From contig CAZRND010000135.1 in the NCBI GenBank assembly GCA_964601345.1, positions 1-13,160 on the forward strand: DNA of 13,160 bases, read 5' to 3'. Shown here one piece after another: positions 1-13,160 of this stretch (positions are counted from its first letter, which is position 1; each line of letters opens with the position of its first letter). A program made the position numbers and the translations under genes. The notes under the pieces were generated by a model, which saw only the letters and a program-made list of their open reading frames with translations, did no database searches and was not told where the DNA came from. Origin of the DNA: an uncultured Acidobacteriota bacterium. Its GTDB lineage: Bacteria; Acidobacteriota; Terriglobia; JAJPHL01.

Positions 1-3
1 CCC

Positions 4-93
4 GGCTATGTGATCGCCGTCGGCGCATGTGGAGGCGAACAGGCTATGGCAAAGTTCGACTCCATGTGCCGAATAGCTTGTAAGGGCTATGGC
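4..93. repeat. Three direct copies of GGCTATG(G/T)(G/C): GGCTATGTG 4-12, GGCTATGGC 42-50, GGCTATGGC 85-93
   Basis: Two exact 9-mers and one 8/9 copy occur within 90 bp upstream of the winged-helix gene. Spacing is 38 and 43 bp. Confidence 0.4.
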
Positions 94-106
94 CCTGCCT
101 TGCTGA

Positions 107-445
107 AGGCTACTGGATTCTCCGCTTCAGCGTGTTCGAGCTAGCCCTGCACGCTGGCGAACTGCGCAGAAACTCAGGGTCCGACTAGAACAGCAATCAT
201 TCCGCGTGCTGGCGGCTCTCTTGCTTAGGCCGGGAGAACTCGTCACACGCGACGAACTCAGGCAGACTCTCTGGTCTTCGGGCACCAATGTCGACTTTGA
301 ACATGGCGTCAACCGGGCCATGAACAAACTGCGTGTAATTCTGGGAGATTCATATGCTGCGCCAAGGTTCATCGAGACGCTGTGGGGGCGCGGCTATCGT
401 TTCATCGCTCCCGTAAGCGCCTCTAACTTTCCTTATGTCAAATGA
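107..445 (+). CDS. CadC/OmpR-type winged-helix DNA-binding domain protein (trans_reg_C-like), standalone ~110 aa; apparently frameshifted and possibly a pseudogene
   Basis: Frame-2 translation 107-445 reads VRLEQQSFRVLAALLLRPGELVTRDELRQTLW...NRAMNKLRVILGD...PRFIETLWGRGYRFIAPV. This is the characteristic wing and recognition-helix signature of OmpR/CadC-family winged helices. The expected N-terminal strand (YWILRFSVFELALHAGELRRNSG) is encoded in a different frame (84-185, ending at TAG 186-188) and has no ATG/GTG/TTG start. The two frames would be joined by inserting one G in the GGG run at 177-179. The track ORF 206..445 (GTG start) is the only piece with a start codon. Confidence 0.6.
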   Translation, partial: RLLDSPLQRVRASPARWRTAQKLRVRLEQQSFRVLAALLLRPGELVTRDELRQTLWSSGTNVDFEHGVNRAMNKLRVILGDSYAAPRFIETLWGRGYRFIAPVSASNFPYVK

Positions 446-849
446 TGAACGTGCAGGCCCTTGATCTTTCCAAAGTGCCGGATGTTTGCGGTGGCCACCG
501 AAAAACCTAAGTCCAAGGCGACAGCGCCGATCCACAGGTCTGCGGTTGGGATGGTCACGCCTCGAGATCTGAGGCTAGCGTCTATCTGCGCGGTAATTCG
601 GGCCGCCGGCAGCGTCAGAGGACAGACAGGAATGCGCGCCAGGATTTCTTCCACGAATTCCTCCCGCCGCGCGCGGACCTCAGGCTTTGTTGCTCGCCAA
701 ACTCCATGCAGAAGTTCAGCAGCGGTCACCGAGGCGATGGCCAATTCCGGATCGCGAAAGGCGGCTGAGACTCGCTTCAGGATCTCGGGCAGGGTTTGGC
801 CGCGACGCTCGCCCCCAATGAAGACGGTGGAATCGAGGATCAGTCCCAC
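433..849 (-). CDS. vapC: Type II toxin VapC (PIN-domain ribonuclease)
   Basis: 138 aa. N-terminus MGLILDSTVFIGGERRG resembles the PIN-domain opener (ILDTNVLI) with acidic residues spaced as in VapC. Its start overlaps the stop of the upstream antitoxin gene by 10 nt. Confidence 0.8.
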   Translation of the reverse strand: MGLILDSTVFIGGERRGQTLPEILKRVSAAFRDPELAIASVTAAELLHGVWRATKPEVRARREEFVEEILARIPVCPLTLPAARITAQIDASLRSRGVTIPTADLWIGAVALDLGFSVATANIRHFGKIKGLHVHHLT

Positions 850-1115
850 GAAGGAGGTTTGTCAGCCGGGTTCCCGCGAATGATCTTTTCCAAATCGCGC
901 GCAAACCCCGGATCGGGAGCAACAGACGGGCGCGCCAGCTTGATCGCCAGGCACTCCGAAGCGCGGCGCGGCGCGAAGGGAGCCGGCCCAATCACGGCAA
1001 CTGGACGCGATCGCCGCACGATCACGGCTTCCAGCCCTGCCTCTACCTTGTCCAGGAGCCGGGAGAAGTCGCGGGCAGCCGCAGTGGCCGAAACCTTGGA
1101 AATCCGATTTCGCAT
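840..1115 (-). CDS. vapB: Type II antitoxin, Phd/YefM/VapB-like
   Basis: 91 aa, MRNRISKVSATAAARDFSRLLDKVEAGLEAVIVRRSRPVAVIGP. This is the typical antitoxin N-terminal fold signature. It sits immediately upstream of and overlapping the PIN toxin. A TATGAT -10-like hexamer lies 6 nt upstream of its ATG on the minus strand. Confidence 0.75.
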   Translation of the reverse strand: MRNRISKVSATAAARDFSRLLDKVEAGLEAVIVRRSRPVAVIGPAPFAPRRASECLAIKLARPSVAPDPGFARDLEKIIRGNPADKPPSWD

Positions 1116-1141
1116 ACGATAATCATATCACGCACCGGTTC

Positions 1142-2950
1142 CTACGACGAACCCTTGCCCCCATCGGACTGCAGCATCTTGACGAGGAGCAGGTTCACTA
1201 AGCTGCCCGCGTCGGCGCCGCCGCCGGCGACAATGTCGGGCACCAGCTTGACCTTGTTCGACGCCAGGGCCTGCGCGATCTGCACCGTGGCGTAGTTGCC
1301 GGCCTCCATCGAGCGGATTTTTTCCTGCGCCACCTGGGCCTCGGCCGATCCCACGGCCTTGACCTTCGCCGCCTCGGCGTTGCCGACTACGAGCGTCACA
1401 TTCGCGTCCGCCTCGGCGTTGATCTTCTTGGACTGCGCCTCGCCCTCCGCCTGCTTCACGCGCGCCTGCGCCTCGAATTCCTTGATCTCGACCGTGCGCT
1501 GCGCGGTGACCACGCCCGATTGCGTCGCCGCCATGGCCCTCGCCTGTTCCAGCTCCTTCCGCGTCTCCTCGGCCATTTGTTGCGTCTGGTAGGTCACCTT
1601 CTCCTGCTCGGCGATCTTCCGGTCGGTCAGCGTCTTCATCAGCGCTTCGGGAGGCGTGATGTCGCCGATCAGCGTATCGATCGCAACCACGTTGTACACT
1701 TCGAGGGCCTTCTTGATCGACTCTTTCGCCTGCTCCTGCCGTTCGCTGCGCTTCTTCAGGAACTCGATCACGTCGGAAGTCTGCGCAGCGTTGCGAAAGT
1801 AGTTGCCGATGGTCGGCTCGAGGACTTGGGTCACGAGATTGACCATCGTTCCGAATCGCGCGATTACCTTCGGCGCCTCGTTTCGAGGGACGTGGATGAT
1901 CTGGCTCACATCCAGATTGAATGTGAAGCCGTCCGAGGACCGCACCGTGATCGTCGAGAGGCGTTCGTCCAGTTTGTGCGCTTCCGTCTTGCCGGTGGCC
2001 CAGTTCAGAACGATGTTCGCGGTCGGAACGACCTCGACCCGGTGCGTCAGAGGGTTGATGGGATATTTTCCGGGATCGAGCGGCTCGACCCACACGCCCT
2101 TCTGCCCCTTTTTGACGAGATTGCCGTGCTGGAACGCCTCGCCCGTCTGATCGACGCCTTCTTCCCCGACAAAAGCGATGACGACGCCGACATTGGCGAT
2201 CGGCACTTCCGTCATGTCCACCGCCTCGACGGTCGCGAACCGCGGGTTGATGAAATAGCGCCCCGCCAGGATGACTTGTTCCTGCAGGCCCTTGTTGCCG
2301 CCGTTGTCAATGAACGTCTCGGCATCCTGGAACATGTTGTGGCCGGAAATAACCCCGCCGGCGATTTCGCCCGGAGGAAGCGGCGCGCCGTCTTTGGTCG
2401 TGACAATGCCGACCGTGTTGTCGGGCACTTCGAGCACGTCGCTGAGGAGCACGGAGAACAACTCGGTGTTGATGCGATAGCTGCCCGGCGGAACGATCGA
2501 GATTTGCGGGCCGCGCTCTCCGCCATTCATCAGAAACGCGCGGGCATCCTGGAACGAATTGCAGAGCACCGTTTTAGCGAGCACGCGGCCACCCGAGAGC
2601 GGCTTGCCGTCGCGCGCTTCGACAATGCCGATTTTGCCCTTTTCGATCACGGTGAACGGAACCAGCTTGACGGCATATTGCCACGCCCACAGCCCGAAGT
2701 GAATTCCCGGCGCTAGCGTGTCGGCTTGCAGGCCGGCCTCTCCATGCAGCGCGACAATCGCGCCGCCTGGCAAGGTCTTGTTCTTGCCGAGGAGAACCCA
2801 TTTCTTGATGACGATTCCCACTTGATCCTTGCCGACGATGACCGTGCCGAAGAACACGCGCAGGATCACCTTGTATAAGGCTCCAATGACGGCAAGGATA
2901 AACAGCGCCAGCAAGACCTTGCCGAACGTTCCGCTGAGTATGTCCATCAC
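1142..2950 (-). CDS. Flotillin / SPFH (band-7) family membrane protein, YqiK-like, with a triplicated N-terminal module
   Basis: 602 aa. It has an N-terminal TM helix (VLLALFILAVIGALY) and an SPFH core (VRSSDGFTFNLDVSQIIHV...NYFRNAAQTSDVIEFL). A long Ala/Glu/Gln-rich coiled-coil flotillin tail follows (EQEKVTYQTQQMAEETRKELEQARA...). An AAGGAGGG SD at 2954-2961 (minus) sits 7 nt before the ATG at 2947; the track start at 2950 is GTG, so ATG 2947 is the more likely true start. Confidence 0.9.
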   Translation of the reverse strand: MMDILSGTFGKVLLALFILAVIGALYKVILRVFFGTVIVGKDQVGIVIKKWVLLGKNKTLPGGAIVALHGEAGLQADTLAPGIHFGLWAWQYAVKLVPFTVIEKGKIGIVEARDGKPLSGGRVLAKTVLCNSFQDARAFLMNGGERGPQISIVPPGSYRINTELFSVLLSDVLEVPDNTVGIVTTKDGAPLPPGEIAGGVISGHNMFQDAETFIDNGGNKGLQEQVILAGRYFINPRFATVEAVDMTEVPIANVGVVIAFVGEEGVDQTGEAFQHGNLVKKGQKGVWVEPLDPGKYPINPLTHRVEVVPTANIVLNWATGKTEAHKLDERLSTITVRSSDGFTFNLDVSQIIHVPRNEAPKVIARFGTMVNLVTQVLEPTIGNYFRNAAQTSDVIEFLKKRSERQEQAKESIKKALEVYNVVAIDTLIGDITPPEALMKTLTDRKIAEQEKVTYQTQQMAEETRKELEQARAMAATQSGVVTAQRTVEIKEFEAQARVKQAEGEAQSKKINAEADANVTLVVGNAEAAKVKAVGSAEAQVAQEKIRSMEAGNYATVQIAQALASNKVKLVPDIVAGGGADAGSLVNLLLVKMLQSDGGKGSS

Positions 2951-2953
2951 GCT

Positions 2954-2961
2954 CCCTCCTT
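2954..2961 (-). promoter_or_regulatory. Shine-Dalgarno (AAGGAGGG) for the flotillin gene
   Basis: Reverse complement of ccctcctt at 2954-2961 gives AAGGAGGG. It lies 7 nt upstream of ATG (2947-2945) and 4 nt upstream of GTG (2950-2948). Confidence 0.55.
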
Positions 2962-3027
2962 ATATATGAGAGCAACCAGCCAGAAGATTAGCATGGGAGA
3001 GTATTATGCGCCGCCCATCGAAAACAA

Positions 3028-3828
3028 GTGAAGTATTCTTTACGAATGAAGTTCCGCATCGCGCTCGCGAATCTCCGCTATCCCGCCGCGCCGGAGGAGT
3101 CGGTGGCCCTCGCGACGCGTACCCTTTGGGAAGCCGCGTCGCAAGGAGTGCGCATCGTGTGTTTTCCCGAGTGCTACGTGCCCGGATACCGCGGACTCGG
3201 CAAGCGGCCGCCGCCGCCCGACTCGGCGTTCCTTGAACGCGCCTGGACCGCAATCGCCGATGCCGCGGGAAAGGCCAAGGTCGCCGTCGTTCTTGGAACG
3301 GAACGCCTCTCCGCAGGCAAGCTGCACGCCACTGCGCTCGTCATCAACGCCGACGGATCGCGCGCCGGATTCCAGGACAAGGTCCAGGTCGATCCATCGG
3401 AAGATGAAACCTACACGCCGGGCGAAGGTCGCCGCGTCTTTCAGGCGGGGGAGCTTACCTTCGGCGTGTCGATCTGCCACGAAGGATGGCGCTATCCCGA
3501 AACCGTACGTTACGCCGCGCGGCACGGCGCGCAGGTCGTTTTTCATCCGCACTATCACCCGCCCGAGCCCGGCTCGCACCAGCCGGCGATGTTCGCCGAT
3601 CCCGCGAACACGTTTCACGAGAAGGCCATGTTCTGCCGCGCCGCGGAGAACACAATCTACTTCGCATCCGTCAATTACGCTTGCGGCCTGTCACCGACCA
3701 CGTCGGCGGTGGCGCGACCGGACGGAACTTTGCTCTCTCATCAGCCCTACGGCTCGGAAGGTCTGCTCGTCGCTGACCTTGATCTGTCCGCGGCGACCGG
3801 CCTACTCGCCTCACGTTTAAGGAGTTAG
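3028..3828 (+). CDS. Carbon-nitrogen hydrolase (nitrilase superfamily) protein
   Basis: 266 aa (start GTG 3028, or ATG 3046 giving MKFRIALANL). It has the Glu-Lys-Cys triad context typical of the superfamily: VCFPECYVPGY (Glu), GFQDKVQ (Lys), FGVSICHEGWRYPE (Cys). AQVVFHPH follows. No SD precedes either start. Confidence 0.85.
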   Translation: MKYSLRMKFRIALANLRYPAAPEESVALATRTLWEAASQGVRIVCFPECYVPGYRGLGKRPPPPDSAFLERAWTAIADAAGKAKVAVVLGTERLSAGKLHATALVINADGSRAGFQDKVQVDPSEDETYTPGEGRRVFQAGELTFGVSICHEGWRYPETVRYAARHGAQVVFHPHYHPPEPGSHQPAMFADPANTFHEKAMFCRAAENTIYFASVNYACGLSPTTSAVARPDGTLLSHQPYGSEGLLVADLDLSAATGLLASRLRS

Positions 3829-3874
3829 CTCGGCGCGGGTCTTTTCCCAGGATCACTCGTATAACCTAACGGCA

Positions 3875-4417
3875 ATGGACGAGATCGCGCGGCTGCGACG
3901 TGGCGACCCGGAAGCATTGACCGCAGTCCTGTCGCGAAATCAGCAGCGCCTCTACCGATTTCTGGTGCGGCTGGTGCGCGACCGGGCCCTGGCCGACGAT
4001 CTCTTCCAGCAGACCTGGCTGCGCGTGATGGAAAAAATCGGCCAATACGATTCCGCTCATCGATTCGAGACCTGGCTCTTCACGATCGCGCATCACTTGA
4101 CGATCGATCATCTGCGCCGGAAGAGCGGAACGAGCCTCGACGTACCGGACGAGTCAGGCGTCACCGGCGCCGAGCGGCTGCGCTCGGGCGGTCGCGATCC
4201 TCTGGAAGGACTCCTCGAATCGGAGCGCGGCGCGATCCTTTCGGCTGCGATCCAGGAATTGCCGGACATCCATCGCGAGGTTCTGGCGCTGCGCTTTGAA
4301 GAAGGAATGAAGCTCGAAGAGATTGCCGAAGTCGTTGACGTCCCGCTCTCGACGGTGAAGAGCCGGTTGATGCGGGCGCTGGTGAGTTTGCGGGAACGAG
4401 TGGAGCAGCGAATATGA
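3875..4417 (+). CDS. ECF (group IV, sigma-70 family) RNA polymerase sigma factor
   Basis: 180 aa. Region 2 reads LFQQTWLRVMEKIGQYDSAHRFETWLFTIAHHLTIDHLRRK. Region 4 HTH reads EVLALRFEEGMKLEEIAEVVDVPLSTVKSRLMRALVSLRE. Its stop TGA (4415-4417) overlaps the ATG (4414-4416) of the next gene. Confidence 0.9.
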   Translation: MDEIARLRRGDPEALTAVLSRNQQRLYRFLVRLVRDRALADDLFQQTWLRVMEKIGQYDSAHRFETWLFTIAHHLTIDHLRRKSGTSLDVPDESGVTGAERLRSGGRDPLEGLLESERGAILSAAIQELPDIHREVLALRFEEGMKLEEIAEVVDVPLSTVKSRLMRALVSLRERVEQRI

Positions 4418-4884
4418 CGGAACACGAAACCATTCAGGCAATGCTGACTCTCGCCGCCGCCGGAGCGCTCGATCCGGCGGAGTTGGCGCAGGTCCAGCGT
4501 CACGCCGAGACGTGCGAGGCATGCCGCAAGGAACTGGCGGTATGGGGCTCGTTCACGCGCGGACTCGCGGCGTTACCGCAGCCCATCCTGCCCCCGGCTC
4601 TCATGGAGCGCACTCGGGCGCGCGTGCTCGAACAGAAAGAAGCGTCCGCCAACACGCGACTCGAGGCATTCGTGCTGGCGGGACTCGCGGTATTCGGATG
4701 GCTGGTCGGCACGGCGGCGTGGTCGTTCGTGCGGATTCTCTTCGCCGGATCGCTTCCGGTGATGGGCATGGATCTCGCCAAAGGCTGGCATTGGTTTCTC
4801 TTTACGACCGTGCTGGCGTGGATGACCGCGGCGTCGGCCGCGGCGGTACTTGGAAAACGCAACGAGACAGAGAGGACTCTATGA
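4414..4884 (+). CDS. Anti-sigma factor, ZAS-type (HxxxCxxC) with two TM helices and no extracytoplasmic sensor domain
   Basis: 156 aa. The N-terminal ~50 aa carry RHAETCEACRKEL (H-x3-C-x2-C, the zinc anti-sigma signature). Two hydrophobic helices follow (AFVLAGLAVFGWLVGTAAW and WHWFLFTTVLAWMTAASAAAVLG), separated by ~18 aa. The gene is coupled to the sigma gene by ATGA at 4414-4417 and to the next gene by ATGA at 4881-4884. Confidence 0.75.
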   Translation: MTEHETIQAMLTLAAAGALDPAELAQVQRHAETCEACRKELAVWGSFTRGLAALPQPILPPALMERTRARVLEQKEASANTRLEAFVLAGLAVFGWLVGTAAWSFVRILFAGSLPVMGMDLAKGWHWFLFTTVLAWMTAASAAAVLGKRNETERTL

Positions 4885-5357
4885 ATCAGAATTCGGAAAC
4901 GAATGTAATCCCGCTCCCAGCATGGCTGACCGCGGCGGTGCTCGGCGGCGGGCTCGCCGTCTTTCTGCTCACGGTGGCGATGCCGAAGAGCAACTGGCCC
5001 GAGCCCTTCCAGGTGTGCTTCTCCATCTGCATGGGGTTGGTCCTGGGCGGCTACGTGCTGCTCATCGGCTACGTCAATGGAGACGCCCAGCGGCGCGGGA
5101 TGCGGCACGTGATGTGGACGCTGTTGAGCATCTTCATCCCCAACGGCATCGGCATCATTCTGTACTTCATCCTGCGCGAACCGCTGCCCCGCAAGTGCCC
5201 CCAGTGCGGCGCGTCGGTCAGCAACAAAGGCGGCGCCTATTGCCCGGCGTGCGGCGGGGCGATGGTCAACACCTGCCCGGCGTGTCATGCGGTGGTGGAT
5301 CCAAATTGGTCTCATTGCGTACAGTGCGGAAAAATCTTGAAGGGAGAAAACTCATGA
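4881..5357 (+). CDS. Membrane protein with 3 predicted TM helices and a C-terminal double zinc-ribbon (4x CxxC)
   Basis: The true start is ATG 4881 rather than the track start 4512. It is preceded by GAGAGGA 5 nt upstream and shares the ATGA overlap with the anti-sigma stop. The 4512-4880 stretch lies antisense-frame inside the anti-sigma gene and is Arg/Gly junk. The 158 aa have helices at ~15-33, 45-65 and 79-98. The tail is CPQCG...YCPACG...CPACH...CVQCG. Confidence 0.7.
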   Translation: MNQNSETNVIPLPAWLTAAVLGGGLAVFLLTVAMPKSNWPEPFQVCFSICMGLVLGGYVLLIGYVNGDAQRRGMRHVMWTLLSIFIPNGIGIILYFILREPLPRKCPQCGASVSNKGGAYCPACGGAMVNTCPACHAVVDPNWSHCVQCGKILKGENS

Positions 5358-6046
5358 AGACACGTCTTGTGATCTTGTTCGCGATTCTGAGCGCCTCGGC
5401 ATTTGCACAACAAGCCCACTGGGAGGGCACGCTCCAAATGCCGAACCGCGAAATGCAACTCACGGTGGACCTGGCGAAGAAAGCCGGCGGAGAGTGGATC
5501 GGCTCGCTTCACCTTCCGGACGCCGGATTGAACGACGTTCCGCTGGCGCGGATTTCCGTGAAAGAGAAAGACGTCCGGTTCGTGATCTCCGGACTTCCGA
5601 TGCCGCCTACGTTCGAAGCCAAGCTCTCGGACGACGGCAACACGCTCGCGGGCATGGCCAAGTCAAACCGTGGCGATGCGGCCTTCGAGCTGAAGCGCAA
5701 GGGTGACGCCAACGTAAAGCTGCCGCCCGCCAGCACGGCGCTCGCGAAGGAGTTCGAGGGCACGTGGCAGGGAACCCTGGATGTTCCCAACGGGCGCAAG
5801 CTGCGCGCCATCGTGAAGCTGGCGCGCGGCGCGGACGGCGTCGCCCAGGGCTCGCTCGTCAGCGTCGACGAGGACAATCAGGAATTTCCGCTGACGACGA
5901 TCGCGCAGAAGGAGAAACAATTGCAGTTCGAGATCCTGGTGATCCGGTCGAAATTCACGGGGACGCTCGCCGAGGGCGGCGCGGAGATCGCCGGCGAATA
6001 TGTCGTGCAGGGCCTGAAGCTGCCGCTGATCCTCAAGAAGCAGTAA
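5354..6046 (+). CDS. Secreted or periplasmic protein with two tandem ~100-aa beta-rich (lipocalin/calycin-like?) domains
   Basis: True start is ATG 5354, preceded by AAGGGAG, with an ATGA overlap with the upstream stop at 5354-5357. It has a signal peptide, MKTRLVILFAILSASAFA|QQ. Repeat 1 (HWEGTLQMPNREMQLTVDLAKKAGGEWIGSL...RFVISGL...FELKRK) and repeat 2 (TWQGTLDVPNGRKLRAIVKLARGADGVAQGSL...LQFEILV...LPLILKKQ) align along their whole length. Confidence 0.7.
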   Translation: MKTRLVILFAILSASAFAQQAHWEGTLQMPNREMQLTVDLAKKAGGEWIGSLHLPDAGLNDVPLARISVKEKDVRFVISGLPMPPTFEAKLSDDGNTLAGMAKSNRGDAAFELKRKGDANVKLPPASTALAKEFEGTWQGTLDVPNGRKLRAIVKLARGADGVAQGSLVSVDEDNQEFPLTTIAQKEKQLQFEILVIRSKFTGTLAEGGAEIAGEYVVQGLKLPLILKKQ

Positions 6047-8524
6047 TCATTCGTACCGCAGGGCGCGCATCGGGTGGATGCGCGATGCGCGCCAGGCGGG
6101 CACGAAGGCCGCGAGAGCGGCCGCCGCGAACAGCACGACGACGCTCGCGACAAACGCGGTCACGTCCGAGGCACCCACTCCGAACAACTGGCTTTCGACA
6201 TAGCGTCCCGAGAGAATGCCCGCCACAACGCCTGCAGCCAGTCCGAAGATCACGATCGTCATCATCTCCATCACCACCAGGCGAATCACGTTGCCGCGGC
6301 GCGCGCCGAGCGCCATCCGGATGCCGATTTCGCGAGTGCGGCGCGCCACCACGAACGCCAGCACACCGTAGAGTCCCACCACAGCGAGGAGCGTCGCCAG
6401 CAAAGCAAATCCCGTGGAGAGGAACGCCAGCATGCGCTCCTGGCCCAGCCGATTGTTGAGCTGGTCGTCGAGCAGCCGCATGTCGTAGACAACCAGGCTG
6501 GAGTCGACGCGCTTCACCGTCTCGCGGAATTGGTTGAACAATTGCCGCGGATCGCGTTCCGTGCGCGCATACACCTGGATGCTGTTGAAGTTCTTGGCAT
6601 ACGTCCCGGCCAGCGTCACAAAGGTTTGGCGCGGAATCTTCCCGCGCACGTTGTCATAGCGCGCGTTGGCAAAGACGCCGATGATCTCCACGTTCGGCGT
6701 GACTTCCCGACCCTGGCCGATCATCTTTCCCACCGGATTCTCTCCGCTCAGATACTCCTTGACCAGCGCGTCATTCACCAGGCAGCGGGCTTGCTCGGAG
6801 CCCCAATCGTTCCAGGTGAAATCCCGCCCGTTGCGGATGGGGATGCCGAGCGCCGCAAAGTATCCCGGACTCACGGCGTTGAAGTAGCTCCACGGGGTGC
6901 GGCTGTCCTGTGACTTGGCGCCGACCATCGAAATCTGGCTGTCCCAACGTCCGCCCATCAGCAGGCGCGTGGTGTTCGCGCCAACGGCCTTCACGCCGGG
7001 GATGGCCGACAGATTCTCGATCACCGTGCGGAAGGTTTGCAGCTTTCGCGGAGGATCGTACGGCGTGGCGGGCGTGATGCCGAACATCACGACGCTCTCG
7101 GTCTTAAAACCGAGGTCCACATTCTTGAGGTTTTGCAGCGTACGGACGAAGAGTCCCGCCCCGGCGAGCAACATGGTGGAGAGTCCCACTTGCAGGGCCA
7201 CGAGAAATTTGCGCAGGCGCACATGGCTGCGCCCTCCGGCCACCGATCCAGCCTCTTCGCGCAGCGTCATCGCCGCCGGCACGCGCGAGCCCTGCAGTGC
7301 CGGGACGATGCCGAAGATCAGGGCGGTGAGCAGCGTGACCGCGGTCGCGAATGCCAGAATCCGCAAGTCGGGCGTGGCCGAAAGCGTCATGTTCGCTGGA
7401 TCGTAAGGCAGCAGGCTCAATAGTCCGCGCGCCAGCCAGAAGCTGCAGAACAATCCGGCGACGCCTCCCGCTGCTGCCAGCACAAGGCTCTCGACCAGGA
7501 ACTGCCGGGCAAGCCGCGCGCGCGTCGCGCCGAGCGCGGCGCGAACCGCGATTTCCTTCTGTCGCGACGCTGCCCGCGCCAGCAACAGGTTCGCTACGTT
7601 CGCGCAGGCGATCAGCAAGACCAGGCCGACCAGCCATTCGAGGACGATCAGCGGTTGCTCGAAGCGTTCGCGGACTTGCGATTGTCCACGCGACGCGGGG
7701 ATGAGCTTGAAGGTCTGCCGGAGGAACGGCTCGCGCGTATCGGGAAATTTCTGGAAGAACTGGCCGTGAAGCTCGTCTTCCTGTCGCTGGCGATAGACCA
7801 CTTTCATCGCCGTCTCGGCCTGCTCCCTTGTCGTCCCAGGCTTCAGACGCGCGAAGAGATAGAACCAGGAGGTCCGCTCGTTGTCCAGGTCCTCCGGCGA
7901 TGGGTACATCGCGATCGGGACCCAGACGTTGGTGGGGAGTCCGGTGTCGGTGCCTTCGAAATCGGCGGCCGCAACGCCGATCACGGTATACGCCGCGCCG
8001 CGCAGCCGAATCTTGGAACCGACAATCTCCTTTTTCCCGGCAAAGCGCGACATCCAGTAGTTGTATTGCAGCACGACGACGGGATGCCCTCCGCGAGACT
8101 TGTCATCGTCGGGAGTGAGCAGGCGTCCGACATGCGGGCGAACGCCGAGGACGTCGAAGTAGTTGCCGGCGACGAATCCCGCGCCGACCAGTTCGCTGCG
8201 ATCGTCGGCAGTCATGCTGAGGCGGCTTGGATATTGGCCGGTTAGCCCGGAAAAGACCGTATTGTGATCGCGGAAATAAACGTAGAGCGGGTAGGAGAAC
8301 GTGTGAACCCCGTCGCCGTTCTGGCTGCCGAAGCGGCCGCCCTCCATCCGCAACTGCACCAGTTCCTGCGGCTTCTCGACGGGCAGCAGCCGCAGCAGCA
8401 CCTGGTCCACCAGCGTGAACATAGCGGTGTTCGCGCCGATGCCCAAGGCGATCGAGACGATCGCCACCAGGGCCAGAACCGGCGACTTTCGCAGGGACCG
8501 CAAGGCAAGGCGCAGATCCATCAT
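6047..8524 (-). CDS. ABC-type permease with duplicated MacB/FtsX domains and no cognate ATPase (acidobacterial duplicated orphan permease, ADOP-like)
   Basis: 825 aa. The N-terminus MMDLRLALRSLRKSPVLALVAIVSIALGIGANTAMFTLVDQVLLRLLP and the C-terminus RIHPMRALRYE are the stereotyped ends of this family. There are two FtsX-like four-helix modules, each following a large periplasmic domain. No ABC ATPase gene lies nearby. Confidence 0.9.
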   Translation of the reverse strand: MMDLRLALRSLRKSPVLALVAIVSIALGIGANTAMFTLVDQVLLRLLPVEKPQELVQLRMEGGRFGSQNGDGVHTFSYPLYVYFRDHNTVFSGLTGQYPSRLSMTADDRSELVGAGFVAGNYFDVLGVRPHVGRLLTPDDDKSRGGHPVVVLQYNYWMSRFAGKKEIVGSKIRLRGAAYTVIGVAAADFEGTDTGLPTNVWVPIAMYPSPEDLDNERTSWFYLFARLKPGTTREQAETAMKVVYRQRQEDELHGQFFQKFPDTREPFLRQTFKLIPASRGQSQVRERFEQPLIVLEWLVGLVLLIACANVANLLLARAASRQKEIAVRAALGATRARLARQFLVESLVLAAAGGVAGLFCSFWLARGLLSLLPYDPANMTLSATPDLRILAFATAVTLLTALIFGIVPALQGSRVPAAMTLREEAGSVAGGRSHVRLRKFLVALQVGLSTMLLAGAGLFVRTLQNLKNVDLGFKTESVVMFGITPATPYDPPRKLQTFRTVIENLSAIPGVKAVGANTTRLLMGGRWDSQISMVGAKSQDSRTPWSYFNAVSPGYFAALGIPIRNGRDFTWNDWGSEQARCLVNDALVKEYLSGENPVGKMIGQGREVTPNVEIIGVFANARYDNVRGKIPRQTFVTLAGTYAKNFNSIQVYARTERDPRQLFNQFRETVKRVDSSLVVYDMRLLDDQLNNRLGQERMLAFLSTGFALLATLLAVVGLYGVLAFVVARRTREIGIRMALGARRGNVIRLVVMEMMTIVIFGLAAGVVAGILSGRYVESQLFGVGASDVTAFVASVVVLFAAAALAAFVPAWRASRIHPMRALRYE

Positions 8525-8584
8525 GCAGCCTTAGACGACGGATCACGCCCGTGGTAACTCGAAATGTGCCGGTTTTTTCGTCCG

Positions 8585-8953
8585 CTACTTCTCGCGCTTG
8601 GCCGTGGCTTCGCTCGATCCGAAATCGCCGACCTTGCGCGTGAACTTGATCTCGTCGCCGCTCACCTTGCCGGTGTACTCGATGCGAATCTGGTTCCCCT
8701 GGACGTCGAGGATCTCGACGAACGAGATGGTGTCGCCCGAGACCTTGCCTTCCTTGATCTCCTGCGCTCCGCGCGGCGAGGTCGCCGTACCGGTGAGTTT
8801 GTCGCCCGCGGCCTTCAGGTCAAAGGTGTACTTCTGCGGCCCGCGCTGCGTGGTGAACTCCGCGGACCATTTCCCGGTGACATCGGCGGCCGCGGCGGAG
8901 AGCGCGCAGCCCAGAATCAATGCGGCGAGAATCGTGATTTTACGATAAGACAT
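8585..8953 (-). CDS. Small secreted protein with a single copy of the same beta-rich domain found in 5354..6046
   Basis: 122 aa with a signal peptide, MSYRKITILAALILGCALSAAAA|DV. The mature part (GKWSAEFTTQRGPQKYTFDLKAAGDKLTGTAT...DTISFVEIL...IKFTRKV) follows the W-x-G/A...L-x-L...G-x-L...F-x-I...K/R pattern of the tandem repeats. A GAGGAGG SD lies 4 nt before the ATG and a TATAAT lies upstream. Confidence 0.7.
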   Translation of the reverse strand: MSYRKITILAALILGCALSAAAADVTGKWSAEFTTQRGPQKYTFDLKAAGDKLTGTATSPRGAQEIKEGKVSGDTISFVEILDVQGNQIRIEYTGKVSGDEIKFTRKVGDFGSSEATAKREK

Positions 8954-8957
8954 AGAG

Positions 8958-8974
8958 CCTCCTCGGGGATTATA
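8958..8974 (-). promoter_or_regulatory. SD (GAGGAGG) plus perfect -10 hexamer (TATAAT) for the small secreted-protein gene; the TATAAT overlaps the npdG stop codon
   Basis: Minus strand reads ccgggcTATAATccccGAGGAGGctctATG. No good -35 was found, so a -10-only or internal promoter is possible. Confidence 0.4.
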
Positions 8975-9617
8975 GCCCGGTAATGCGCAATCCCGCGGTG
9001 TGGACCTTGTGCTTGATGTTCAGCGTGATGAGCAGCGCGGTGATCTGCTCGACGATGCGGGCGTTCTCGAGGCGGCCGCCGTTCAGCGCGCGGACGCCGG
9101 GGATCAATTGCGCGAGCTCGCTCGCCGCCTGGCGGGCGCGCTCGTCGTCGGAGCAGACAATCACGTCGCCGTCCACGGGACCTTCGCCCTGCAGCAACTC
9201 GGCGGAAAGATTTTGAAACGCCGCCGCCACCGCCACGCCCTTCGGCGCAAGCTCGGCCGCCTGCTGCGCAGCCGATCCTTGCCAGACGCCGAGCGTGCGC
9301 GTCGCTTGCCCGCCGACGGCGGGCGCGAGCGGAACAGTCGCGTCGATCAGGATCGCATCGGGCTTGAAAGCGGGCTTTAGCGCCTTGATTGTCGCGGCGT
9401 GCCCCGCGAAGGGGATCGTCAGCACCACGATGCCGGCCGCTGCTACGGCAGCAGCGTTCTCCATACCGCGGGCGCTGCCAAGCGACGCGGCGGCCTCCTC
9501 GGCGCGCTTCGAGTCGCGCGAGCCGATGATGACGTCTTGTCCCGCGCGCACCCATCGCCGCGCGAGCCCCAATCCTTCCGGGCCCGTTCCTCCCACGACC
9601 GCGATTGTCCCTGGCAT
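8970..9617 (-). CDS. npdG: F420-dependent NADP(H) oxidoreductase (Fno/NpdG family)
   Basis: 216 aa from ATG 9617. The track ORF extends to 10022, but only as Arg/Gly junk antisense to the flavin reductase gene. MPGTIAVVGGTGPEGLGLARRWVRAGQDVIIGSRDSKRAEEAA has the Rossmann GGTGxxG motif. The protein is collinear with archaeal Fno along its whole length, including the C-terminal ...LNIKHK...GLRI. Confidence 0.8.
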   Translation of the reverse strand: MPGTIAVVGGTGPEGLGLARRWVRAGQDVIIGSRDSKRAEEAAASLGSARGMENAAAVAAAGIVVLTIPFAGHAATIKALKPAFKPDAILIDATVPLAPAVGGQATRTLGVWQGSAAQQAAELAPKGVAVAAAFQNLSAELLQGEGPVDGDVIVCSDDERARQAASELAQLIPGVRALNGGRLENARIVEQITALLITLNIKHKVHTAGLRITGL

Positions 9618-9633
9618 GGGGCTATAGTATATT
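9605..9633 (+). promoter_or_regulatory. Candidate plus-strand promoter for the flavin reductase gene: -35 TTGTCC, 17-bp spacer, -10 TATATT. It overlaps the npdG -10 face to face.
   Basis: TTGTCCctggcatggggctatagTATATTttttcccaTTG. The -10 ends 8 nt before TTG 9642. Confidence 0.3.
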
Positions 9634-9654
9634 TTTTCCCATTGCAGCGGCCAA
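9626..9654 (-). promoter_or_regulatory. Sigma70-like promoter for npdG: -35 TTGGCC, 17-bp spacer, -10 TATACT. The -10 ends 8 nt before the ATG, so the transcript would be leaderless.
   Basis: Minus strand reads TTGGCCgctgcaatgggaaaaaaTATACTatagccccATG. There is no SD. Confidence 0.4.
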
Positions 9655-10121
9655 CCCAACAGGAATTCCGCGCGGCCATGGGGCGCTTCGCCACCGGCGT
9701 CACGGTCGTCACCGTGGCGCGGGGCCCGGAACAGGTCCACGGCATGACCGCCAACTCGTTCACGTCCGTGTCGCTCGATCCGATGCTGATCCTGGTCTGC
9801 GTCGGGCGCAACGCGCTGGCGCTCACACTGCTGCGGGCGCAGAAGCGCTTCGGCGTGAACATCCTTGCCGAAGATCAGCGATCGCTCTCCGAATACTTTG
9901 CTCGCACCGAGCAGAACGGCGACGTGCCCTTCGAGCGCACGGCGCAGGGAACGCCACTGCTGAAGACCTGCCTGGCGCGCCTGGAATGCCAGGTGATCGC
10001 GGCGCACGAAGCGGGGGATCACACCATCTTCCTCGGGCAGGTGGAGACGCTGGAAACGCGCGACGGTCGGCCGCTACTCTTCTATAGCGGCGAATACCGC
10101 CAGCTCGACTCAGACAAATAA
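9642..10121 (+). CDS. Flavin reductase-domain protein (FMN-binding split-barrel, HpaC/NADH:flavin oxidoreductase-like)
   Basis: Start TTG 9642 (159 aa) is preferred over ATG 9678. The conserved N-terminal motif QEFRAAMGRFATGVTVVT begins upstream of the ATG. SVSLDPMLILVCV...NILAEDQ...FER is typical of the family. Confidence 0.75.
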   Translation: MQRPTQQEFRAAMGRFATGVTVVTVARGPEQVHGMTANSFTSVSLDPMLILVCVGRNALALTLLRAQKRFGVNILAEDQRSLSEYFARTEQNGDVPFERTAQGTPLLKTCLARLECQVIAAHEAGDHTIFLGQVETLETRDGRPLLFYSGEYRQLDSDK

Positions 10122-10982
10122 ATCTTCGAAACTCTCGACCACGCGCGCGCCGGCCCGGCGCAAGCGATCGACCTTGCCCTGATAGCCGCCGCGACCCGCT
10201 TCGATCATCGCTCCGGCGTGGGAATATCGCGTGCCGCCCGCCGCGGAGCGTCCGCCGATGTAGGCCGTGAGCGGCTTTGTGACCTCGCCGCTTTCGAGCA
10301 ACTCGGCGACCTGTTCCTCCTGCGACGTGCCGATCTCGCCCAGGATCATGATGCTGCCGGTCTCGGGATCGGCTTGGAAGCGGCGCACGCAATCGGCGAG
10401 CGGCATGCCCACGATCATGTCGCCGCCGACGTGCACAATGCTGCTGACGCCGCGTCCCGCGCGGCAGGCGTAGTAGCCCGCCGAAGCGGCGAGTCCGCCG
10501 CTTCGCGACGCGATGCCGACGTCGCCGGGACGGAACCAGGCGCGAGCCGACGCCGCCGATCCGCCCATCATTCCCACGACGGCCTTCCCGGGACTGATCA
10601 CGCCGAGCGTGTTCGGCCCGATGAAGCGGGCGCCCGCCTTGCGGACGGCCGCGTCGATCGCCAGCACGTCGTAGAGCGGAACACGATCGGCGATAAGCGC
10701 CAGGAGCGGAATGCCGGCGGCGATCGCTTCGAGCGCCGCGGGCTTGGCCTGCGGCGCGGGCACGAAGATCGCGCTGACATCGATGGGACCGAGCGCGGCG
10801 ACGGCCTCGCGCGCGTTTTCGAAGACAGGCAGTCCGTGCACGGACTGCCCGCCGCGTCCGGGCGACGAGCCGCCCACGATCCGCGTGCCGTAGTCGAGCA
10901 TCAGCCGCGCGCGCGCCGAGCCCTCGCGTCCCGTGATTCCCTGCACGAGAACTTTCTTCGTCCCGTCAATCAAAATGGACAT
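10110..10982 (-). CDS. sucD: Succinyl-CoA synthetase alpha-subunit-like (CoA-binding, ADP-forming acyl-CoA ligase alpha)
   Basis: 290 aa. MSILIDGTKKVLVQGITGREGS...IVGGSSPGRGG...GLPVF...IFVPAP...GPNTLGVISPG...SRSG...YSHAGAMIEA tracks SucD motif by motif, including the phosphohistidine loop SHAGA. The 3' end overlaps the convergent flavin reductase gene by 12 nt. Confidence 0.85.
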   Translation of the reverse strand: MSILIDGTKKVLVQGITGREGSARARLMLDYGTRIVGGSSPGRGGQSVHGLPVFENAREAVAALGPIDVSAIFVPAPQAKPAALEAIAAGIPLLALIADRVPLYDVLAIDAAVRKAGARFIGPNTLGVISPGKAVVGMMGGSAASARAWFRPGDVGIASRSGGLAASAGYYACRAGRGVSSIVHVGGDMIVGMPLADCVRRFQADPETGSIMILGEIGTSQEEQVAELLESGEVTKPLTAYIGGRSAAGGTRYSHAGAMIEAGRGGYQGKVDRLRRAGARVVESFEDLFV

Positions 10983-11220
10983 GGAGATCGATGCGCGCTC
11001 CTCCGCGGCCTTGATACCAACACTCCACTTCGCACGCCAGGCATTCGATGCAGCGCCCGCGCGCCGCTTCTTCTCGCGTGATGTTCAACACGGGCAGGCC
11101 GTCCTTCGCGCTGAGAATCTGCGGGACGCATTCGGTGATGCAGGCCTTCGATTCACAATCGCGGCAAACGTCGTGATCGAAGGTGATCGTTCCCGTCCGC
11201 GTTCGAAAGAAATAGATCAT
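10966..11220 (-). CDS. Small ferredoxin-like protein with two [4Fe-4S]-type Cys clusters
   Basis: 84 aa from ATG 11220. The track ORF extends upstream as Arg-rich junk. The clusters are CRDCESKACITEC (CxxCx4Cx3C) and CIECLACEVEC (CxxCxxCx3C). The start overlaps the sucC-like stop as ATGA. The 3' end overlaps the sucD-like start by 17 nt. Confidence 0.6.
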   Translation of the reverse strand: MIYFFRTRTGTITFDHDVCRDCESKACITECVPQILSAKDGLPVLNITREEAARGRCIECLACEVECWYQGRGGARIDLHVHFD

Positions 11221-12353
11221 CCGATCAACTCCCGCAGGCGGCGGGCGCAGAATTCTGCCGTCGCGTCGGCGCCATAAGCCTCGACCGGCACGGGCGCCTC
11301 CGCCGCATAACGGCGCATCACGGCGATCGCGCGCTCCTCGCCGTTTCCACCCAGTCGCACGACGGCCGGAACCGTGAGCGGCGCTTCTCGAAAAGCTTTC
11401 ACCAGACCACGAGCGTGATGGAATTGCTCCTGGCTGGCGACTCCCGCGCCGGAGAGAAAATATCCGCGTAGGCCGGGCTGCGCCAAAATGATCCGCGCGG
11501 CGCGATAAACCTTCGAGGCCGGCGGATTCCCGCTCGTATCGGCGAAGTTCGCCGGGCTGAGGCCTTCGGCTACGGCGGCGTCGAGGCTGGCCATCGATCC
11601 GCCGCCGCCCAATCCATGAAAGCCGATACGGATGCCCGGCGCGGGATTCGCCGTCTCGACGAAATAGAAGGTCCCGCGATAGTCGTCCTTCTCGACGTCC
11701 CAGGCGATGCGCTCGAGCGCGGTGGGCGGATGGCCGAGTTCCCGCGCCACGTCGATTCCCAACTCCGGATGCCGGAAAACGGCGTAGTCGTCGACGCGCA
11801 TGCGGCAGTCGAGGGCCACCCAACGTCCGTCCTCGGTGAGCGCGAGCGGATTGATCTCGGCGGTGTGCGCCTCGCAGGCGCGCGCCGCGCGAGCCAGCTT
11901 TTCGAGCACATCGGCGGCGCCGGCGGGTACCGCGGCTGGCGTTCCTTTCAGCGCCTCGGCCAGGTCGCCGATCGCCAGACGCGTGATCGAGTCCGCGCGA
12001 TCTTCGATGCCGCTGCCTCCCGCGCGACTGAAGAGCAGCACGGGGCCGCGCGCGCGATCGTCCACCATGTATCCCGCGTAGTATTCGTGAACGATCGGCA
12101 AACGCTCTTCGACCAACACGGGACCGTCCGTCTCGAGGAAAGCATCTTCTGGAGAATTCGCAAAGCGAATCAGTCCGGCGCCGGCGCGATTCGTCGTCGC
12201 CACTTGCGCTTTCACGACGACGGGCAGTCTCAAAGTCCGGGCAGCTTCGCGGGATTCATCGCGGTTGCGGCAGAGCACTCCCTTGGGCACGGCGATGCCG
12301 TGATCCCGCAGGATTTGCTTGCCCTGATATTCGGTCAGGCTAGCCACGGACAA
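11217..12353 (-). CDS. sucC: Succinyl-CoA synthetase beta-subunit-like (ATP-grasp) protein, divergent
   Basis: 378 aa. The start is TTG 12353, or GTG 12347 giving MASLTEYQGKQ. LTEYQGKQILRDHGIAVP and VVKAQV...EINPL...GGNGEE are collinear with SucC. The canonical KAQVHAGGRGKAGGV loop is replaced by KAQVATTNRAGAGLI. A GGAG lies 4-10 nt upstream, inside the mfd 3' end. Confidence 0.8.
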   Translation of the reverse strand: MSVASLTEYQGKQILRDHGIAVPKGVLCRNRDESREAARTLRLPVVVKAQVATTNRAGAGLIRFANSPEDAFLETDGPVLVEERLPIVHEYYAGYMVDDRARGPVLLFSRAGGSGIEDRADSITRLAIGDLAEALKGTPAAVPAGAADVLEKLARAARACEAHTAEINPLALTEDGRWVALDCRMRVDDYAVFRHPELGIDVARELGHPPTALERIAWDVEKDDYRGTFYFVETANPAPGIRIGFHGLGGGGSMASLDAAVAEGLSPANFADTSGNPPASKVYRAARIILAQPGLRGYFLSGAGVASQEQFHHARGLVKAFREAPLTVPAVVRLGGNGEERAIAVMRRYAAEAPVPVEAYGADATAEFCARRLRELIG

Positions 12354-13160
12354 AATTCTCCAGCACGGATCGCACCTCCATCAAAATGCCGGGGCCTGAA
12401 CTCTCGGCGATGGGAACGCTGAGCACACCGGCGGGCGAGAACTGCGATCCCTCGCGGCGGCCGAGAAAATCCATCAGCCGCTTCGGATCGGCCGGAGCGT
12501 CCTGGTGAAACTCCACGTGCAGCATGCCGCGCCGCCGCTCGATCTTGCGGATGGCGAGTCTCGTCGCCACGGCGCGCAAGCCCGCGTAGTCGAGCAGTTG
12601 AAGCACCGAGGGAGGCGGCGGGCCGTAGCGGTCTTCGAGCTCCTTCTCCATCGCCGCGCGATCCTCGGCCCCGGCAATCTGCTTGTAGATGCGCAGGCGC
12701 TGCCTCTCGTCGGGGACGTAATCGTCGGGGATGCGCAGGTTCACGCCCAGGTTGATCACGGTCGAGACTTCCGGCGCGACGTCCTCGCCCTTCAGCTCGC
12801 GGACGGTTCGTTCGAGCATGGTGCAATAGAGATCGAAGCCGATGGCGTGGATGTGTCCATGCTGCTCCCCGCCGAGCACGTTGCCCGCGCCGCGCAACTC
12901 GAGCTCGAGCGCCGCGATTTTGATTCCCGCGCCGTGGTCGCTGAATGCCTTGAGCGCGCTGAGCCGGCGTCGCGCCAGCGGCGTCAGCTCGCCTTCCGTG
13001 GGCACCAGCAAGTATGCGTACGCGCGACGGTTCGACCGTCCCACGCGCCCGCGCAATTGATACAGCTCGGAAAGGCCCATGCGGTCGGCGCGATTGACCA
13101 GGATCGTGTTGCAGAGCGGAATGTCGAGCCCGTTCTCGATGATCGTGGTGGCGACGAGAA
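12340..13160 (-). CDS. mfd: Transcription-repair coupling factor Mfd, C-terminal portion (5' end lies beyond the window)
   Basis: Helicase motif VI (QLRGRVGRS) is followed by the TRCF C-terminal domain. The frame stays open to 13160, and the residues encoded after 13080 (...LVATTIIENGLDIPLCNTILVNRAD) are helicase-C region. Stop is TAG at 12340-12342. Confidence 0.9.
   Translation of the reverse strand, partial: LVATTIIENGLDIPLCNTILVNRADRMGLSELYQLRGRVGRSNRRAYAYLLVPTEGELTPLARRRLSALKAFSDHGAGIKIAALELELRGAGNVLGGEQHGHIHAIGFDLYCTMLERTVRELKGEDVAPEVSTVINLGVNLRIPDDYVPDERQRLRIYKQIAGAEDRAAMEKELEDRYGPPPPSVLQLLDYAGLRAVATRLAIRKIERRRGMLHVEFHQDAPADPKRLMDFLGRREGSQFSPAGVLSVPIAESSGPGILMEVRSVLENFVRG

Follow-up and report, generated by a model that had tools for sequence, protein, structure and literature searches.

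Sigma factors of the extracytoplasmic function (ECF) type form a major route of bacterial signalling, and for most of their groups the signal and the mode of sensing are unknown. Acidobacteriota are abundant in soil and have hardly been studied for ECF signalling. A stretch of 13,160 nucleotides (nt) from an uncultured member of this phylum (contig CAZRND010000135.1 of assembly GCA_964601345.1, positions 1 to 13,160; hereafter the window) carries on its plus strand, at 3875-6046, four overlapping genes, g1 to g4, for an ECF sigma factor, a zinc-binding anti-sigma (ZAS) factor, a membrane protein with a double zinc ribbon and a predicted secreted protein. The initial annotation of this DNA treated the four as a single split-sensor system, in which the secreted protein binds a ligand in the periplasm and reports through the zinc-ribbon protein to the anti-sigma factor. 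The locus raises two questions: which of the four genes make up the regulatory unit, and how a signal might reach an anti-sigma factor that has no sensor domain of its own.

In this paper we compare the locus with related loci from metagenomes and genomes, and we examine the domains, predicted structures and upstream DNA of its genes. The conserved unit is the triad g1, g2 and g3, always co-encoded in one order among the loci scored, and g4 is a lineage-specific add-on of a narrow Bryobacteraceae-like clade. Our preferred explanation, to which we give a probability of roughly 0.55, is a three-component ECF sigma module that regulates itself and carries one additional gene as a passenger.

Conservation of the triad

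Gene context was scored in a set of loci built on g3, made up of the 80 best metagenome loci, two further loci (L001 and L005) and the window. An anti-sigma gene lay upstream of g3 in all 62 loci that had more than 500 nt of upstream DNA, the sigma gene was present in each of the 43 loci with more than 1100 nt upstream, and the order sigma, anti-sigma, g3 was identical in all scorable loci. The same arrangement was recovered in the reverse direction: the four anti-sigma homologues that were looked up (38-49% identity to g2) were all flanked by a sigma gene upstream and a gene for a double zinc ribbon (DZR) protein downstream. The search for the g2 family returned only 40 clusters, the anti-sigma factor being a fast-diverging protein. 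A separate membrane protein had been counted as part of the module in the initial annotation, and on these counts g3 keeps that place.

The coupling between the genes is also retained. In the window g1 (180 amino acids, aa) occupies 3875-4417, g2 (156 aa) 4414-4884, g3 (158 aa) 4881-5357 and g4 (230 aa) 5354-6046, so that consecutive genes share ATGA stop/start overlaps at 4414-4417, 4881-4884 and 5354-5357, exactly where they had been placed before. The earlier view of the locus as a tightly coupled unit extends to its relatives for the triad, since the -4 overlap is kept in 49 of 60 sigma/anti-sigma junctions and in 65 of 73 anti-sigma/g3 junctions of related loci. Downstream starts had been credited with ribosome-binding sites of their own, and our reading of the sequence agrees: GAGAGGA (4870-4876) and AAGGGAG (5340-5346), both Shine-Dalgarno-like, stand 4 nt ahead of the g3 ATG and 7 nt ahead of the g4 ATG, respectively, and GGAG (4402-4405) precedes g2.

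The position after g3 (+3) is far more variable. It is filled by g4 in eight loci including the window, all of them closest relatives. Elsewhere it holds a glyoxalase-family protein of 268 aa whose N-terminus looks like a twin-arginine signal (seven loci and L111), a 65-aa tautomerase (seven loci), a SpoU methylase, a lysine/alanine-rich protein of histone-like appearance or a probable Ser/Thr kinase; the glyoxalase, SpoU methylase and tautomerase identities were confirmed by Pfam. Glyoxalase and SpoU methylase genes start 11-34 nt from the g3 stop and tautomerase genes about 60-110 nt from it. In 18 of the 66 loci with at least 300 nt of downstream DNA the position is empty, with no same-strand open reading frame (ORF) within 250 nt past the g3 stop. 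Clustering of the flanking ORFs found no other gene family common to more than eight triad loci, and on this ground both a conserved fourth gene and a nearby protease were rejected as further components. The triad and g4 can also be found apart within one assembly: in JAIQFI01 (GCA_020073345.1, the metagenome-assembled genome (MAG) Terriglobia bacterium SRVP_5) contig 24 carries the triad with a glyoxalase gene after it, and the g4 homologue (48% identity) is on contig 1, where no sigma gene is close by.

The initial annotation had proposed that conservation of g3 and g4 beside orthologous sigma/anti-sigma pairs be used to judge its model, and the outcome divides the two genes: g3 is kept beside the pair, whereas g4 is absent from most loci, where other genes or none take its place. 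A module of four components is not supported by this comparison.

At one locus (L033) the approximately 370 nt past g3 (1040-1410) contain apparent repeats, in which alternative-frame ORFs give recurring peptide strings, and a convergent gene for a 705-aa membrane protein stands in place of g4.

Sigma factor and its putative promoter

The description of g1 as an ECF sigma factor was borne out by matches to Sigma70_r2 (68.6 bits), Sigma70_r4 (56 bits) and TIGR02937 (101.1 bits against a cut-off of 42.9), all above their cut-offs, and on these domains g1 is assigned to the ECF (group 4) sigma-70 factors. Its nearest solved structure is SigW (4.5e-23), and it is also near factors of the RpoE/AlgU type. 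None of the NCBIfam equivalog models was reached, the scores in bits against cut-off being 156.8/206 for PRK12513, 121.7/209 and 98.5/243 for SigW, 99.3/194 for SigY and 86.1/236 for RpoE.

Directly ahead of g1, at 3837-3863 on the plus strand, conservation and position point to a putative autoregulatory promoter of ECF type, composed of a -35-like element GGGTCTTTT (3837-3845), a 12-nt spacer and a -10-like element TCGTATA (3857-3863). When the DNA upstream of the sigma gene was aligned across loci, the consensus was GGGTCTTTY-N12/13-TCGTATA. The pattern GTCTTTY-N13-CGTAT, with a spacer of N12 in the window and in L095, occurs once per locus and always directly upstream of the sigma gene; a stricter pattern matches 36 fetched loci and the window, and the sole additional match to the pattern is one off-spacing hit in L045. 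By chance 0.04 occurrences would be expected in the window. No second copy of the motif was found ahead of g4 in the window or near g4 homologues elsewhere. Across 3600-6500 of the window no sigma-70-type promoter was found, and every terminator-like hairpin in that interval lies inside coding sequence.

The g1 ATG at 3875 follows the end of the -10-like element after 11 nt and g1 has no Shine-Dalgarno sequence, and because of this short gap and missing site the sigma transcript is probably leaderless or nearly so. Alignments of the upstream regions indicate that many homologues (for example L001, L005 and L029) have an N-terminal extension of about 20 aa (MILAAAVNPE...) which g1 does not have. 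In the extended and the short forms alike the start codon falls about 11-12 nt past the -10-like element, and this similar distance suggests leaderless translation of both.

Anti-sigma factor

The product of g2 matches zf-HC2 with 33.5 bits (cut-off 22.2) and carries the invariant motif H30-x3-C34-x2-C37. Each of the candidate zinc ligands H4, H30, C34 and C37 is shared by 95% or more of 56 homologues. Two hydrophobic segments (about residues 85-109 and 128-146) enclose an outer loop of approximately 18 aa, and the protein contains no additional domain. By family match, motif and hydropathy g2 is a class I ZAS anti-sigma factor with two transmembrane (TM) helices and no sensor domain, the minimal form that had been proposed for it; zinc binding and inhibition of the sigma factor are predicted functions. 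The only solved structure that it matched was ChrR, and weakly (E ~0.1). A ligand set of two histidines and two cysteines corresponds to the ChrR type of zinc site, as opposed to the cysteine-rich RsrA type.

Membrane protein with a double zinc ribbon

The third protein was correctly described as having three TM helices and a double zinc ribbon. Hydropathy places its hydrophobic helices at residues 16-34, 45-63 and 80-98, and an AlphaFold2 (AF2) model, with a mean predicted local distance difference test (pLDDT) score of 86, at 12-33, 41-72 and 75-99. Four CxxC motifs follow, at 106, 121, 132 and 146, and all eight cysteines are invariant in 22 homologues; the match to DZR (PF12773), 42 bits, exceeds the cut-off of 27.3 and makes g3 a member of that family. 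The most conserved stretch of the whole module is the near-invariant block LLIGYVxGDARRRGMRYVMWTLLAIFIPNxIGIILYFILRDP, which spans helix 2, an arginine-rich turn and helix 3; no part of the anti-sigma factor is as strongly conserved. Within it, residues 65-99 resemble PLDc_N (PF13396) with 19 bits, under the 23.3 cut-off for membership. The resemblance recurs in 17 of the 22 members of the g3 family that were aligned (E <= 1), the best at E = 0.0013 and all below the gathering cut-off, and no phospholipase D catalytic domain is present in g3. At E <= 1e-3 the family comprises 1277 clusters, almost all of them 150-175 aa in length, and a library clustered at 50% identity has 91 representatives at E <= 1e-30.

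Seven representatives of the family (P0326, P0296, P0294, P0300, P0312, P0319 and P0321) have a PLDc_N-like hairpin, the DZR, one more TM helix and then a C-terminal domain, which is TonB_C in P0326 (39.6 bits), DUF4825 in P0296 and unknown in the others. As one TM helix separates the DZR from TonB_C or DUF4825, the ribbon would be cytoplasmic and the arginine-rich turn outside the cell. The nature of Cys4 zinc sites weighs in the same direction. The initial annotation had made the ribbon part of the extracytoplasmic portion of the module; we judge the cytoplasmic side the better placement, with a chance of about two in three.

Two observations do not favour a cytoplasmic ribbon. Counts of lysine plus arginine are nearly tied, at 6.5 for the N-terminus with the arginine-rich turn and 7.3 for loop 1 with the C-terminal tail, and a cytoplasmic ribbon fits poorly with P0325 and with relatives built of tandem modules. 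A re-entrant helix 3 would reconcile the clues to topology, and we do not assert it, as the AF2 model gives a straight helix of 25 residues.

The tandem relatives are P0310, P0316, P0323 and P0324, in which g3-like modules are repeated and end in a CarboxypepD_reg domain. P0325 has an HxxxCxxC motif ahead of two g3-like modules and was considered as a fusion with an anti-sigma domain; its match to zf-HC2 is weak (E = 0.02) and the g2 hidden Markov model missed the protein, which was too little for this to be accepted. P0286 (802 aa) was likewise set aside as a fusion of sigma factor, anti-sigma factor and g3, the garbled sequence between its recognisable stretches being read as frameshifted read-through.

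Predicted secreted tandem-barrel protein

The fourth protein begins with a hydrophobic leader that ends AFA|QQ, taken by eye for a type I signal peptide. One half of the protein aligns with the other at 38% identity over 79 aa (E = 1e-12), and the AF2 model (mean pLDDT 91.7) has two eight-stranded beta domains at residues 21-118 and 136-229, which upholds the earlier description of a secreted protein with two beta-rich repeats of about 100 aa. In the model the barrels are of the eight-stranded up-and-down kind with an avidin/calycin-like fold; each opens with G-x-W, and there is a basic residue close to the C-terminus. A putative role as a binder of small ligands is probable. Comparison of g4 with Pfam and NCBIfam gave no match at E < 0.1, and none of the 60 clusters of its family (143-350 aa) has a Pfam domain.

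When one genome per species was scanned, g4 homologues turned up in 24 genomes, all of them Acidobacteriota. Sigma, anti-sigma and DZR genes lie upstream only in the nearest two (54% and 58% identity, the former from Bryobacteraceae), and the other 22 have no homologue of the g1 sigma factor within 6 kb. The overlap between g3 and g4 is unique to the window; in the other g4-bearing loci a gap of 16-41 nt separates the two genes, reaching about 130 nt in L035. Because g4 is restricted to a narrow clade, because the +3 position is variable and because g4 homologues occur in unrelated contexts, we consider an output, co-transcribed with the triad, a likelier role for the protein than that of a sensor.

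The contexts of the g4 homologues are diverse. One is a GntR and ABC-transporter pair. In a subclade with about 42-43% identity (L002, 3647-9570, and L003, L012 and L014) a P-type ATPase gene and a gene for a 99-aa protein lie upstream and FixS-CcoN-CcoO-CcoP of a cbb3-oxidase cluster lie downstream, and the four-gene cluster of L001 is flanked by cytochrome bc and ResB/CcsA genes. Such respiratory neighbours could point to a role in the assembly of respiratory complexes or in metal handling.

In MAGs of Pyrinomonadaceae/Blastocatellia, barrels of the g4 type form the N-terminus of predicted secreted alpha/beta-hydrolases of the S9/S33 type. These ORFs are about 547-549 aa long in L017, L019 and L021 and shorter in L022-L026 and L028; the L019 fusion carries two barrels and the weaker hits apparently one.

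Immediately beyond g4, on the minus strand at 6047-8524, the window encodes an 825-aa duplicated MacB/FtsX-type permease of the ADOP family (TIGR03434, 888 bits). The two genes converge and no base lies between them, since g4 stops at 6046 and the ORF of the permease ends at 6047. In L005 and L010 a similar permease (MacB_PCD and FtsX), also convergent, lies past the g4 homologue, and this may be chance; ADOP-type permeases are a highly paralogous family in Acidobacteria. Further on, at 8585-8953 of the minus strand, there is an ORF of 122 aa whose N-terminus is hydrophobic and signal-like and which falls in no Pfam family; it weakly resembles a single barrel of the g4 type (hhalign probability 51%, E = 1.6e-4).

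Other genes of the window

The minus strand also encodes a PIN-domain toxin with a Phd/YefM-like antitoxin at 433-1115, the antitoxin match being below the Pfam cut-off, and a 602-aa SPFH/Band-7 protein at 1142-2950. Further genes of the window are for an F420-type oxidoreductase, a flavin reductase, a succinyl-CoA-ligase-like protein and Mfd (TRCF). No link between any of these genes and the sigma module was seen.

Discussion

The three-component module that we favour could work as follows. The anti-sigma factor would hold the sigma factor at the membrane through its cytoplasmic zinc-binding domain. As g2 alone would be unable to sense conditions outside the cell, it would act in a complex with g3, as YhdL does with YhdK or YxlC with YxlD. 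A cue would be perceived by g3, either at the membrane surface by the arginine-rich block of helix 2, turn and helix 3 (a lipid or membrane signal) or by the eight-cysteine ribbon (thiol, redox or metal). The cue would alter the g2-g3 complex such that the sigma factor is released or g2 is degraded, and free sigma factor would transcribe its own operon. In this scheme g4 would have been acquired in a Bryobacteraceae-like lineage and would be made as an output, not as a sensor. A more specific proposal goes further, and we offer it tentatively as a possibility: that g3 is the signal-perceiving subunit of an undescribed class of three-component ECF regulators, so far almost confined to Acidobacteriota, in which a lipid or a thiol/metal cue exerts allosteric control over a sensor-less ZAS factor, and g4 barrels, glyoxalase-family enzymes and tautomerases serve as downstream outputs.

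Several points weigh against this account. We infer the g2-g3 complex from co-occurrence, coupling and precedents, and universal co-occurrence with coupling is also expected if g3 is a constant output. The triad may already be catalogued as an ECF group. In addition, g4 stays downstream of g3 across proteins that are only 54-64% identical and is coupled to it in the window, which leaves room for a lineage-specific regulatory role of g4.

That g3 is itself the conserved output of the sigma/anti-sigma pair, a membrane-protective or lipid-handling protein and not a regulator, seems to us unlikely, though it draws on real features of the data. The sole promoter motif found at each locus would drive the operon itself, which makes g3 the one gene always under control; its conservation, stronger than that of the anti-sigma factor, is what a constrained effector would show; and it has a weak resemblance to PLDc_N, the N-terminal membrane element of cardiolipin synthase. 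The 4-nt overlap with the anti-sigma gene in most loci suggests instead a fixed stoichiometry with g2, and a sensor-less anti-sigma factor needs its input from elsewhere. Relatives of g3 in which the ribbon is followed by one TM helix and an extracytoplasmic TonB_C or DUF4825 domain have the architecture of sensors, and third membrane subunits have precedents in ECF31 (PMC7826278) and in the sigma-M system (PMC11081497). The input might also be received by the anti-sigma factor, with g3 stabilising or shielding it, through sensing of cytoplasmic thiol or redox stress at the zinc site, as in RsrA, or through regulated intramembrane proteolysis, as in RsiW; we find this quite improbable. Its HxxxCxxC motif is invariant, but H4, H30, C34 and C37 include only two cysteines, which on the motif and general knowledge is like ChrR, itself a weak match. 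Although SigW is the closest solved sigma factor and its ZAS partner, RsiW, is eliminated by proteolysis (PMC5358783), the triad has no conserved protease gene in its vicinity, and sensing by g2 would leave the stronger conservation of g3 unexplained.

The four-component split sensor of the initial annotation is improbable as well and is the rival least compatible with the distribution of g4. It could appeal to the ATGA overlaps at all three junctions of the window and to the presence of g4 downstream of g3 in all eight loci of the close clade. A periplasmic ligand-binding subunit would, however, have to be dispensable in most triad loci, where g4 is missing and unrelated genes stand in its slot. 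Its overlap with g3 is not kept even among the loci that have both (gaps of 16 to about 130 nt), 22 of the 24 genomes with a g4 homologue have no g1-type sigma gene nearby, the triad and g4 lie on separate contigs of JAIQFI01, and barrels of the g4 type double as N-terminal modules of secreted hydrolases.

The triad is apparently uncharacterised and is widely conserved in Acidobacteriota. The partners of the sigma factor are named at NCBI only as 'zf-HC2 domain-containing protein' and 'zinc ribbon domain-containing protein'; NCBIfam has no model for g3 or g4, and Pfam matches g3 solely through its zinc ribbon. A search of full-text literature, with the ECF Hub group models outside its scope, yielded no paper that connects an anti-sigma factor with a double zinc ribbon or PLDc_N-type protein, and a search of the literature on ECF systems in Acidobacteria found nothing on the triad. 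In the main text of Casas-Pastor 2021 a double zinc ribbon comes up only in connection with a phage sigma factor.

In place of a one-off set of four genes there is a clearly delimited triad, found at all the related loci that were examined, and its conserved promoter motif can be used in a reporter and to probe the regulon. The two unannotated families, that of g3 and that of the g4 tandem barrels, gain a first, weak functional handle. If g3 is a sensor, the few multi-protein anti-sigma complexes, now represented by sigma-M/YhdLK and sigma-Y/YxlCD, would gain a partner of a new kind.

Comparison with known systems

A second membrane protein is conserved beside the anti-sigma gene, as in known three-component ECF modules. 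In Bacillus subtilis sensing by the YhdL-YhdK complex is reported to take place inside the membrane, SigM being released when the lipid carrier undecaprenyl phosphate is depleted, by a mechanism thought to be allosteric and not proteolytic (PMC11081497). Like the triad, the sigM-yhdL-yhdK operon has three genes, for a sigma factor, an anti-sigma factor and another integral membrane protein, which in B. subtilis acts together with YhdL. The operon is found in Firmicutes, whereas the triad is found in Acidobacteriota, and g3 has a double zinc ribbon and a PLDc_N-like block that set it apart from YhdK by description, not by comparison of sequences. In the ECF31 group (sigma-Y) the anti-sigma factor YxlC at +1 and YxlD at +2 are both needed and both conserved group-wide (PMC7826278). 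The likeness of the triad to sigY-yxlC-yxlD lies in this conservation of the proteins at +1 and +2 across the group, although g1 is not a SigY orthologue, scoring 99.3 bits against a cut-off of 194. YxlE, encoded downstream in the sigY operon, is probably of the PLDc_N type, and if this is right the parallel would be closer.

The sigma factor g1 is closest to SigW, and g2 shares the HxxxCxxC motif with RsiW and ChrR; g2 differs from the anti-sigma factors of the SigW/RsiW and ChrR-type systems in having two TM helices and in lacking a sensor domain, whether extracytoplasmic or C-terminal. The barrels of g4 share the avidin/calycin-like fold in the AF2 model without membership of its sequence families. 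Among known systems the triad would stand as an ECF module with an accessory membrane subunit, its third component being unlike YhdK and YxlD by description.

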